Notes: a model not told the origin generated them from the sequence alone. A stretch of DNA of 64,000 nucleotides from Escherichia coli (GCF_041248615.1 NZ_CP158426.1), one strand, 5' to 3'; shown: positions 34,790 through 38,566, counted from the stretch's first letter. Numbers and translations: made by a program.

Positions 34790-35155
34790 GTCGACAGGGA
34801 GTCAGACAACGAAGTGAACATCAGGATGATGACACTTCTGAAGGACACACCAGGATGGTGTTTCAGGGAAAGGCTTCTGGATGAAGCGAAGAGGATGACG
34901 CAGGACGCGTTAAAGGACACCTCCAGGATGGAGAATGAGAACCGGTCAGGATGATTCGGTGGGTCAGGAAGGCCAGGGACACTTCAGGATGAAGTATCAC
35001 ATCGGGGTGGTGTGAGCAGGAAGCAATAGTTCAGGATGAACGATTGGCCGCAAGGCCAGAGGAAAAGTTGTCAAGGATGAGCAGGGAGCAACAAAAGTAG
35101 CTGGAATGCTGCGAAACGAACCGGGAGCACTGTGAATACAGTGCTCCCTTTTTTT
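34790..35155 (+). ncRNA. csrB: CsrB small RNA (CsrA-sequestering)
   Basis: Begins GTCGACAGGGAGTCAGACAACGAAGTGAACATCAGGATGATG; about 17-18 CAGGA(U/A)G / AGGA motifs seen; ends in the GGGAGCACTGTGAATACAGTGCTCCCTTTTTTT terminator; lies between syd and yqcC. Confidence 0.9.
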
Positions 35156-35200
35156 ATTCCTGCTATCCTTCGCGGCAGTTTTTCTTATTGAGGTTGCTTT

Positions 35201-36329: not shown

Positions 36330-36779
36330 ATGGCGGAAATTGGTATTTTTGTCGGCACTATGTACGGAAATTCGCTGTTAGTGGCGGAAGAAGCGGAAGC
36401 AATTCTGACCGCGCAGGGCCACAAAGCAACGGTATTTGAAGATCCTGAATTAAGCGACTGGCTGCCCTATCAGGATAAGTATGTTCTGGTGGTTACGTCC
36501 ACGACCGGGCAGGGCGACCTTCCTGATAGCATTGTGCCGCTCTTTCAGGGAATCAAAGATACCCTGGGCTTCCAGCCGAATCTGCGTTATGGCGTGATTG
36601 CGCTCGGCGACAGTAGTTATGTGAATTTCTGCAATGGCGGCAAACAGTTCGATGCCTTGTTGCAGGAACAGAGCGCTCAGCGGGTTGGCGAAATGCTGTT
36701 GATTGACGCCAGTGAGAACCCGGAACCGGAAACGGAATCAAATCCGTGGGTCGAACATTGGGGCACGCTGTTGTCCTGA
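36330..36779 (+). CDS. yqcA: Flavodoxin-like protein YqcA
   Basis: 149 aa, short-chain flavodoxin fold. Confidence 0.85.
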
Positions 36780-37213
36780 TATGTTCAGCGAGCGGTAAAT
36801 GCCGTTTTAGCGGTGCTGAATCGAATCTTTTCAGGCAAATGCCAGTAAAAACTGCTTCATAGCGCGGATTTTTACTGGCGTTTGCCTGGAGTCAAGCGAT
36901 CCATTTCATACTCTTCTTTATTTCTTCGTTTTAACCCTTCCTTTCTTGTTCTTGTTTTCATTTCCGTGAAGTGGATTCCACCGTCCAGGGCTAATGCCAA
37001 AATCGGGCCTCATTGAACGCATTAATGTTGTGTTGTTGCACGGTGAGCCGCTATGGCGCGCTTTTTATACTGCTATTGCCAGATATAAACACGCGCCGTA
37101 TTCGGCGAACGACCTATAAAAACGGCAAAAAACACCCTACGTCACCTCTGATTTCCTGGCGATGTCGCAGTCCAGAGTGAGCGTGGCTAACGCGAATTTT
37201 CAGGAGTGCAACA

Positions 37214-38566
37214 ATGAGTTCTTTAAGTCAGGCTGCGAGCAGTGTGGAAAAACGCACAAATGCTCGTTACTGGATAGTGGTGATGTTGTTTATCGTCACA
37301 TCCTTCAACTACGGCGACCGCGCTACGCTCTCTATCGCCGGTTCGGAAATGGCCAAAGATATCGGCCTTGATCCTGTGGGAATGGGCTATGTGTTCTCTG
37401 CCTTCTCATGGGCTTATGTTATCGGGCAGATCCCTGGTGGTTGGTTGCTGGATCGTTTTGGTTCAAAACGCGTCTACTTCTGGTCGATCTTTATCTGGTC
37501 GATGTTTACCTTGCTGCAAGGCTTCGTCGATATCTTTAGTGGATTCGGCATTATCGTTGCCCTGTTTACTCTGCGCTTCCTGGTCGGGCTTGCTGAAGCG
37601 CCATCTTTCCCCGGCAACAGTCGCATTGTTGCGGCCTGGTTTCCGGCGCAGGAAAGGGGAACGGCGGTGTCGATTTTTAACTCCGCTCAATACTTCGCAA
37701 CGGTGATCTTCGCGCCGATTATGGGCTGGCTGACGCATGAAGTGGGCTGGTCACACGTCTTCTTCTTTATGGGCGGTCTGGGGATTGTCATCAGCTTTAT
37801 CTGGTTGAAAGTCATCCACGAGCCAAATCAACATCCGGGGGTAAATCAGAAAGAGCTGGAGTACATCGCCGCGGGTGGCGCGCTGATCAATATGGATCAG
37901 CAAAACACCAAAGTTAAAGTGCCGTTCAGCGTGAAGTGGGGGCAGATCAAACAGTTGCTCGGGTCACGGATGATGATCGGCGTTTATATCGGTCAGTACT
38001 GTATCAACGCCCTGACTTACTTTTTCATTACCTGGTTTCCGGTTTATCTGGTGCAGGCGCGTGGGATGTCGATTCTGAAAGCGGGCTTTGTGGCTTCCGT
38101 TCCGGCGGTTTGCGGTTTTATCGGCGGTGTGCTGGGTGGGATTATTTCCGACTGGCTGATGCGCCGCACGGGATCGCTGAACATTGCGCGTAAAACACCG
38201 ATCGTAATGGGCATGTTGCTGTCGATGGTGATGGTGTTCTGCAACTACGTCAACGTTGAGTGGATGATCATCGGCTTTATGGCGCTGGCCTTCTTCGGTA
38301 AGGGCATCGGGGCGCTGGGTTGGGCAGTAATGGCAGATACCGCGCCAAAAGAGATCAGCGGTCTTTCCGGTGGCCTGTTCAACATGTTCGGTAACATTTC
38401 TGGCATCGTCACGCCAATCGCAATTGGTTATATCGTTGGCACGACTGGCTCCTTTAATGGGGCGCTGATTTATGTTGGTGTTCATGCCTTAATCGCGGTA
38501 CTGAGCTACCTGGTGCTGGTGGGCGATATCAAGCGTATCGAGCTGAAACCTGTCGCGGGGCAATAA
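37214..38566 (+). CDS. gudP: Probable D-glucarate/galactarate MFS transporter
   Basis: 450 aa, 12-TM MFS. Confidence 0.9.

Follow-up and report, generated by a model that had tools for sequence, protein, structure and literature searches.

The 434-bp spacer between yqcA and gudP (positions 36780–37213) lies in a window of 64 kb of Escherichia coli DNA, by which we mean the whole stretch that was analysed. It is flanked on both sides by genes of the plus strand, namely the flavodoxin gene yqcA (CDS 36330–36779, the stop codon ending at 36779) and gudP (37214–38566, ATG at 37214). The counterpart in MG1655 is found at 2922101–2922534 as the reverse complement, an interval in which the MG1655 RefSeq annotation has no feature. 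A full-length copy of the sRNA CsrB (34799–35158, plus strand; Rfam RF00018, 382.9 bits) is located upstream of yqcC-truC-yqcA, 1.6 kb from the spacer, and most of the loci retrieved for comparison have CsrB at their left end as well.

The spacer is single in 5425 of 5426 complete E. coli genomes, with an identity of at least 99% in 5398 of the 5425 matches. As a repeated extragenic element (REP/BIME, ERIC or MITE) it would have to recur, and it occupies a median of one place per genome in these 5425 genomes; being single-copy, the region was ruled out as a mobile repeated element. To place it in a wider context, a scan with GudP using one genome per species gave 80 Enterobacteriaceae loci, 77 of which have yqcA directly upstream of gudP with spacers of 284–638 bp (77 loci, as parsed). 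Alignment of these spacers revealed strong conservation from 36955 to the gudP ATG, with TTTTCATTTCCGTGAAGT, TTCCAC, GGGCTAATGCCAAAAT, AATGTTGTGTTGTTGCACGGTGAGC and CTTTTTATACT as conserved blocks, and the upstream region that forms a hairpin in E. coli is alignable in about half of the species. A small protein was also ruled out, since open reading frames are not kept outside Escherichia: a 44-aa TTG ORF (36882–37016), whose start lies inside the hairpin stem, is intact only within Escherichia, and no ORF is common to the other genera.

The inverted repeat and boxes common to gud, gar and cdaR

The original prediction described an 11-bp inverted repeat in this spacer, and its two halves are exact (GCCAGTAAAAA, 36841–36851, and TTTTTACTGGC, 36870–36880). 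They form the core of a longer, imperfect inverted repeat at 36829–36891, with arms at 36829–36855 and 36864–36891 around an 8-nt loop. As plus-strand RNA the arms pair in a stem of 27 pairs (23 Watson–Crick and 4 G.U) with one bulge, and in a 101-nt context this RNA has a predicted folding energy of −46.3 kcal/mol (z = −6.6; none of 200 shuffles as stable). The same inverted repeat folded as DNA gives −22.2 kcal/mol (z = −7.2). The energy of the stem segment ranges from −27 to −40 kcal/mol in Escherichia and from −7 to −24 kcal/mol in other taxa, and since folding is weaker elsewhere, the long stem appears to be a derived feature of Escherichia, to which the full predicted 27-bp stem is restricted.

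Across genera, a conserved RNA hairpin was ruled out. RNAalifold found no pairs and no consensus structure in an alignment of the 35 species that carry the distal module described below, and the E. coli helix mapped on this alignment is barely above its shuffled controls, with 63% of cells able to pair versus 60% with shuffled partners and at most 47% with slid partners. The inner GCCnGTAAAA/TTTTACnGGC is the sole part of the stem that extends beyond Escherichia, and one of its positions covaries (CG 8, AU 5, UG 5, UA 4, unpaired 12). An inversion of the loop between Escherichia lineages was likewise rejected, as the reverse-complement alignment was matched by 207 of 2000 shuffles.

The arms of the repeat are two copies of a palindromic box, GGCWWWTGCC. 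The upstream copy (D1, 36834–36843, GGCAAATGCC, core GCAAATGC at 36835–42) is centred 227.5 bp upstream of a TATACT hexamer close to gudP, and its alignment columns G23, G24, C25, G30 and C31 are at least 90% conserved in the 35 species. The downstream copy (D2, 36877–36886, GGCGTTTGCC, core GCGTTTGC at 36878–85) is centred 184.5 bp upstream of the same hexamer, 43 bp from D1. D2 reads GGGCGTTTTCAC in other genera, and D1 reads GGGCATTTGCAC in several of them, which is exactly the box found at gar and cdaR. Two further boxes are located nearer to gudP: P2 (36988–37003, GGGCTAATGCCAAAAT, core GCTAATGC at 36990–97), centred 72.5 bp upstream of TATACT, and P1, within the block AATGTTGTGTTGTTGCACGGTGAGC (37024–37048; core GTTGTTGC at 37032–39, with TTGCAC at 37036–41), 30.5 bp upstream. 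These are the offsets of garP box 2 and box 1, respectively, so that box cores stand 30.5 and 72.5 bp upstream of TATACT at gudP and garP alike.

The box recurs at the other promoters of this regulon. A 14-mer, GCATTTGCACAATG, is exact in both the cdaR upstream region and the garP/garD spacer, where approximately 4e-4 such coincidences would be expected by chance; at cdaR it is situated inside a larger palindrome, GGCATT-TGCAC-AATGCC (loci L083, 2400–2420, and L082, 7033–7046). Judging from the window, the octamer GCAWWTGC would be expected about 0.1 times in the gud, gar and cdaR regions, but it has four distinct sites there, and its only gud copy is the 5′ hairpin arm (36835–42). When the gar/cdaR-derived sequence GCATTTGCAC was searched with up to two mismatches in the 77 yqcA–gudP spacers and in their flanks, matches were 3.7 times denser in the spacers than in the flanking DNA and clustered at about −385 (D1), −345 (D2), −235 (P2) and −178 (P1) from the ATG. 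Pair spacings are also similar, with 43 bp for D1–D2, 42 bp for P2–P1 and 42 bp for the gar pair, which is itself an inverted repeat (TGTGCAAATGCT/AGCATATGCACA, 92% complementary, 32 nt between arms). The gar boxes are kept 42–44 bp apart in Salmonella, K. michiganensis, Raoultella and C. braakii, and Kosakonia has one box only. We also observed that the K. michiganensis garP–garD spacer contains GGGAATCCCCAGGAGCTTACTAAAGTAAGTGACTGAGGTGAGCG (locus L085, about 860–905), which we take to be a candidate ERIC-type intergenic repeat from its resemblance to that family.

A motif common to the gudP, garP/garD and cdaR promoters, with position and spacing kept across species and between promoters, is what an operator of the CdaR regulon would look like, and the GGCWWWTGCC box is probably the CdaR operator. 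CdaR, which responds to glucarate, galactarate and glycerate, is known to activate gud and gar (PMC4551912 and its reference 52; bioRxiv 10.1101/2024.02.14.580360). It activates its own gene as well, and garP/garD belongs to the CdaR/SdaR regulon (Monterrubio et al. 2000, as cited in PMC4551912). From the occurrence of the box, the protein that binds it is most likely CdaR. In the literature searched, no CdaR operator defined by experiment was found, and a predicted SdaR motif has been published as a figure (PMC2996990). Based on the sharing of the box and its positions and spacings, we propose that the hairpin most plausibly represents a distal pair of the operator found at the core promoters of this regulon. 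A palindromic box such as this, with inner flanks rich in A and in T, will automatically form an inverted repeat when it occurs twice. However, D1 and D2 match the gar and cdaR boxes in the 8–10-bp core alone and the flanks differ, which counts against the operator reading. A third box-like copy, GGTAAATGCCG (36794–36804, with the degenerate box-like GTAAATGC at 36795–36802), is present 40 bp upstream of D1 within a weak hairpin that follows yqcA.

The Escherichia stem carries a further signature in its downstream arm. Before a conserved TCAAG, Citrobacter and Salmonella read GGC(A/G)TTTTCAT(A/G)nG and Escherichia reads GGCGTTTGCCTGGAG, so that five clustered substitutions convert TTTTCAYnGG to TTTGCCTGGAG, three of which copy the complement of the D1 flank. 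Quasipalindrome (template-switch) mutations perfect imperfect inverted repeats, and here, too, clustered substitutions in one arm all raise its complementarity to the other. This pattern is a template-switch signature, from which we infer that the Escherichia stem was perfected by such a mutation; however, in this case the event is read from a comparison of species, and selection on an RNA stem would leave an identical substitution pattern.

A spacer conserved in length and strand composition

Downstream of the hairpin lies the pyrimidine run noted in the original prediction (36909–36966), which contains 49 pyrimidines in 58 positions (T 34, C 15, A 5, G 4). No pyrimidine or purine run in the window outranks it, and the score of its best segment (36911–36965, plus strand) was reached in 2 of 300 shuffles of the 64 kb. 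The last 11 bases of this segment enter the next conserved block (36955–36981), composed of TTTTCATTTCCGTGAAGT at 36955–72 and TTCCAC at 36976–81 and conserved at about 90% over approximately 72 non-Escherichia species. The body of the tract (36913–36954) is a spacer of fixed length and variable sequence, which is not conserved and is unalignable between genera.

Between D2 and the tract is a conserved motif at 36892–36912, TCAAGCGA-N5-TTTCATACT in E. coli and TTTCACACT in other genera. In its general form, TCAAGnGA-N5-TTTCAC, the TCAAG, GA and TCA are invariant in the 35 species. The motif resembles a weak CRP site (AGnGA-N6-TCACA); alternatively, the CAYACT within it resembles a remnant of a −10 hexamer. 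Using a CRP matrix (TGTGA-N6-TCACA) derived from 28 sites measured by Footprint-seq (PMC12871828), the E. coli sequence CAAGCGATCCATTTCATACT scores 0.1, and in the other genera the median is 4.8 and no score exceeds 7.3, a weak match given that the weakest training site scores 9.6 and the 99.9th percentile of the window is 5.0. Binding of CRP at 36892–36912 is thus possible. IHF, FNR, sigma-54, sigma-E and PurR were considered for the conserved motifs by comparing consensus sequences by eye, and none fitted.

The distances that separate these elements are tightly kept. D1 is 57 or 58 bp from TCAAG in 34 of 39 species, and TCAAG is 67 or 68 bp from a CRTTTYCGTGA anchor in 40 of 45 species, the interval that the tract occupies. 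In the remaining five of the 45 it is 57 or 58 bp, and inspection of these species by eye confirmed that exactly 10 bp, one helical turn, are missing. Further downstream, the anchor is 30 bp from P2, P2 is 47 bp from P1 and P1 is 26 or 27 bp from the −10 block. A spacer whose length is kept while its sequence is free suggests that complexes on its distal and proximal sides must share a face of the helix, as in looping or wrapping, and the comparison points to helical phasing of the distal and proximal DNA sites.

Strand composition is the other property that is kept. The sense strand of the spacer is pyrimidine-rich in all 45 species (mean 0.71, minimum 0.57; interior 0.66) with a C:G ratio of about 2:1 (C 674, G 340 over the 45 species), and the window as a whole is biased the other way on its plus strand (G>C, skew +0.043). 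A DNA ruler should be strand-symmetric and does not explain this bias, which suggests that something reads the strand; a second role of the tract as a Rho entry site for read-through from yqcA is possible. The value in the E. coli tract (Y = 0.88) is an extreme specific to Escherichia, and together with the 27-bp stem, also Escherichia-specific, it makes the description of this region as unusual for an E. coli promoter a fair one. Conservation across Enterobacteriaceae had been proposed as a check: it holds for the length and strand composition of the spacer, but does not extend to the tract sequence or the full stem. This conservation in length and strand composition without conservation in sequence is the one real oddity of a promoter-upstream region that is otherwise ordinary but nicely structured, a new example of a familiar architecture.

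The putative gudP promoter and leader

The plus-strand sequence CTTTTTATACT (37061–37071) contains the putative −10 hexamer TATACT at 37066–71, at least 90% conserved, and garP has GCGCTGCTTATACT at an equal offset from its boxes, and GCGCT-N3-TTATACT is common to both promoters. A good −35 element is missing at gudP, as expected for an activator-dependent promoter. We infer a transcription start about 7 nt after the −10 hexamer, which would give a 5′ UTR from 37078 to 37213 with AGGAG at 37202–06. Depending on the species, 133 to 177 nt separate the −10 block, which starts at 37062, from the ATG, and the leader is A-rich (A 2890 vs T 1812, summed over 62 loci). The constraint on length switches at the −10, and since spacing is rigid upstream and length is free downstream of it, transcription probably starts just after TATACT, leaving the tract outside the gudP leader. 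The tract had been suggested to be a regulatory leader; TATACT lies 100–155 bp downstream of it, and the rigid upstream and variable downstream lengths argue instead for non-transcribed promoter DNA followed by a leader.

Functional evidence is available for the interval as a unit, since the whole yqcA–gudP spacer has been used as a CdaR- and glucarate-responsive promoter in a biosensor (PMC4551912). Neither gudP nor yqcA has an entry in the supplements of Adams 2021 or Kim 2012. Two further features were also detected in this part of the spacer. An inverted repeat (TATGGCGCGCTTTT, 37052–37065, and AAACACGCGCCGTA, 37087–37100; 79% complementary) brackets the putative −10 and the gudP start, and a terminator-like match is present on the minus strand of the gudP leader (37107–37094).

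A proposed phased control region and its alternatives

We propose that gudPXD is controlled from this 434-bp spacer and that hairpin and tract both belong to the DNA architecture of the control region. The promoter would be activator-dependent, with TATACT at 37066, no −35 and boxes 30.5 and 72.5 bp upstream as at garP, and the hairpin arms D1 and D2 would form a second, distal pair of the same box. CdaR would bind all four boxes. The tract would separate a distal module, comprising D1, D2 and TCAAGnGA-TTTCAY, from the proximal sites, and complexes on the two sides could face each other through looping or wrapping, perhaps assisted by a weak CRP-like bend site between them. We hold this reading, an extended and phased CdaR-type control region with the hairpin as a distal operator pair and the tract as a length-constrained spacer, with somewhat more confidence than doubt. 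The suggestion of a protein-binding tract is thereby preserved in part, as protein binding fits the hairpin arms, which have their box in common with CdaR-controlled promoters, but not the tract itself. However, the distal module is absent in the C. freundii and E. cloacae complexes and is hence dispensable, which counts against the proposed model.

The closest parallel is garP/garD of E. coli, which has the core GCAWWTGC, a 42-bp box pair arranged as an inverted repeat, the 30.5- and 72.5-bp distances to TATACT and A/T-rich DNA between the boxes. Unlike garP, gudP has an extra distal pair 112 bp further upstream, which in Escherichia forms a perfect 27-bp stem, whereas the gar arms are 12 nt. 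The gar CRP site is strong (Kd 1.9 nM; PMC12871828), whereas the gud candidate scores poorly. The arrangement also recalls known promoters. Phased distal operators with looping or wrapping occur at araBAD (AraC, O2/I1) and at malEp-malKp (MalT and CRP), where, as here, operator copies extend over 200–300 bp at whole-turn spacings with a possible bend site between distal and proximal complexes. However, looping at gud is a prediction, and the activator here belongs to the PucR/CdaR family.

With gudPXD and garPLRK-garD, E. coli and Salmonella can use oxidised sugars for growth in a gut that is inflamed or has been treated with antibiotics, and as a whole the gudP region serves as a glucarate biosensor. 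The box, the two-pair layout and the phasing rule provide concrete sites for testing and could guide the trimming and tuning of such sensors. A more elaborate version of the proposed model, which we regard as speculative and rather unlikely, has a phased activator assembly of about 310 bp built by tandem duplication of a promoter module, giving two box pairs that each have a −10-like hexamer. The linker between them would be read both as a DNA ruler and as RNA, in the latter case as a site where Rho enters read-through transcripts or those from the distal promoter, which would silence the operon when inducer is missing.

The main rival to the phased control region treats the spacer as the 3′ UTR and terminator zone of yqcC-truC-yqcA, with the stem as a 3′-end hairpin that blocks exonucleases and is possibly an RNase III substrate, and the tract as a rut site insulating gudP. 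Most other genera have a GC-rich stem-loop, GCCCTCYCC...GGRGAGGGC, right after yqcA; this is absent in E. coli, which has in its place, just past the yqcA stop codon, a weak plus-strand hairpin (GUUCAGC...GCUGAAU, 36783–36821), so that read-through should reach the long hairpin. The long stem is more stable as plus-strand than as minus-strand RNA (−40.1 vs −31.7 kcal/mol), and its non-Watson–Crick positions in Escherichia are G.U on the plus strand 21 times versus A.C twice, an excess that fits selection on the plus-strand RNA in a set of five sequences that are not independent of each other. The E. coli tract has the composition of a rut site: its C/G ratio (2.7) is in the top 0.5% of 78-nt windows, it has 16–17 YC dimers per 78 nt where the mean is 8.4 (sd 3.1), and it is predicted to be unpaired. 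Such a role also agrees with the pyrimidine and C>G bias of the sense strand, which all 45 species show and which opposes the local G>C skew. Stable stem-loops at the processed 3′ ends of Rho-terminated transcripts are the theme of PMC6061677, and the gud locus resembles the trimmed terminators described there in having a strong stem-loop, then an untranslated and unstructured C>G pyrimidine stretch, at a gene that lacks a canonical intrinsic terminator. Indeed, the stem is not itself an intrinsic terminator, which would have a G+C-rich stem, a 3–8-nt loop and an immediate U-run, since it is followed by GAGUCAAGCG rather than by a U-run and the U5 run lies inside the stem. However, compared with the terminators in PMC6061677, the gud tract is U-rich rather than C-rich (C only 26%) and of fixed length, and the full stem is confined to Escherichia with no structure conserved across genera. 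A fixed length with a 10-bp class is foreign to rut sites, the conserved elements in and near the stem are sequence motifs of other promoters, and the literature searched gave no Rho or 3′-end record for this locus. Tract strength showed no relation to a missing post-yqcA terminator, although terminators were called by a crude criterion (17 of 45). Due to the strand bias, the rut-like composition, the missing post-yqcA stem-loop and the G.U excess we retain this explanation as the main rival; we consider it unlikely, and a 3′-end or Rho function is more likely an added role in Escherichia than the main role of the region.

The remaining alternatives place a promoter inside the spacer or deny it a function. 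The distal module could be a tandem duplicate of the gudP promoter that is active as a secondary promoter, with a −10-like CATACT at 36907–12 (CACACT elsewhere) and the tract at the 5′ end of a gudP leader some 295 nt long, possibly subject to Rho-dependent attenuation. The order box–43 bp–box–25 bp–CAYACT indeed mirrors box–42 bp–box–30 bp–TATACT, conservation of A2, A4 and T6 in CAYACT is complete or at least 90%, and a start near 36919 would explain the strand-asymmetric spacer composition in every species. Yet the hexamer lies 5 bp closer to the box than TATACT does at gudP and garP, it begins with C, the TCAAGnGA-TTTCAC motif and the spacer persist in species that lack D1, and the transcript would have to cross the proximal activator sites. 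A consensus scan of 36600–37400 also yielded no promoter and no terminator on the plus strand, and we regard a second promoter here as improbable. That scan gave a single promoter-like match on the minus strand, TTGACT (36895)...AAAAAT (36868), whose TTGAC is the reverse complement of the invariant GTCAA, and the centre of the repeat, with A- and T-runs around a small variable stem, is like a weak bidirectional terminator. From these features an independent sRNA or an antisense RNA might be proposed, but with 0.6 matches expected by chance a single one is not significant, other genera do not keep the −10 part, and a transcript of the minus strand would include just one of the two stem arms and continue antisense into yqcA without meeting a terminator. 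The spacer has no Rfam match at E thresholds of 10 in E. coli and 1 in eight other genera, and with no match in nine genera and no pairs from RNAalifold, a known RNA family, whether an sRNA or a cis-regulatory RNA, was ruled out. The earlier idea of an sRNA remnant finds neither a family, a consensus structure nor a conserved promoter-plus-terminator pair, and an RNA gene of either kind is very hard to credit. Lastly, the extremes seen in E. coli may be functionless, the stem a neutral by-product of template switching and the tract the result of compositional drift in an unconstrained spacer. Only one lineage has the full stem and the Y = 0.88 tract, the spacer sequence is unalignable between genera, and the distal module has been lost in some complexes that retain the operon. 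However, neutrality sits poorly with a length conserved together with a 10-bp class, with the invariant motifs within the module and with a pyrimidine bias that opposes the local skew in 45 of 45 species, and we attach little probability to it.

Other genomes show further variation at this locus. In the C. freundii and E. cloacae complexes a REP-like hairpin, GCCGGGT..GGCG..GCCGCC..ACCCGGC, is found instead between yqcA and the conserved TTTTCATTTCC block, within the first 60–100 nt after yqcA (loci L007, L008, L017, L022, L051, L060, L068, L070, L071 and L075). The urine isolate E. coli EC6563 (NZ_CP095856.1, locus L090) lacks gudPXD; its homology to the spacer (match 2501–2657) ends at query base 157, corresponding to position 36936 of the window, with barA about 215 bp further on. 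Since this homology ends inside the pyrimidine tract, the deletion breakpoint lies within the tract.
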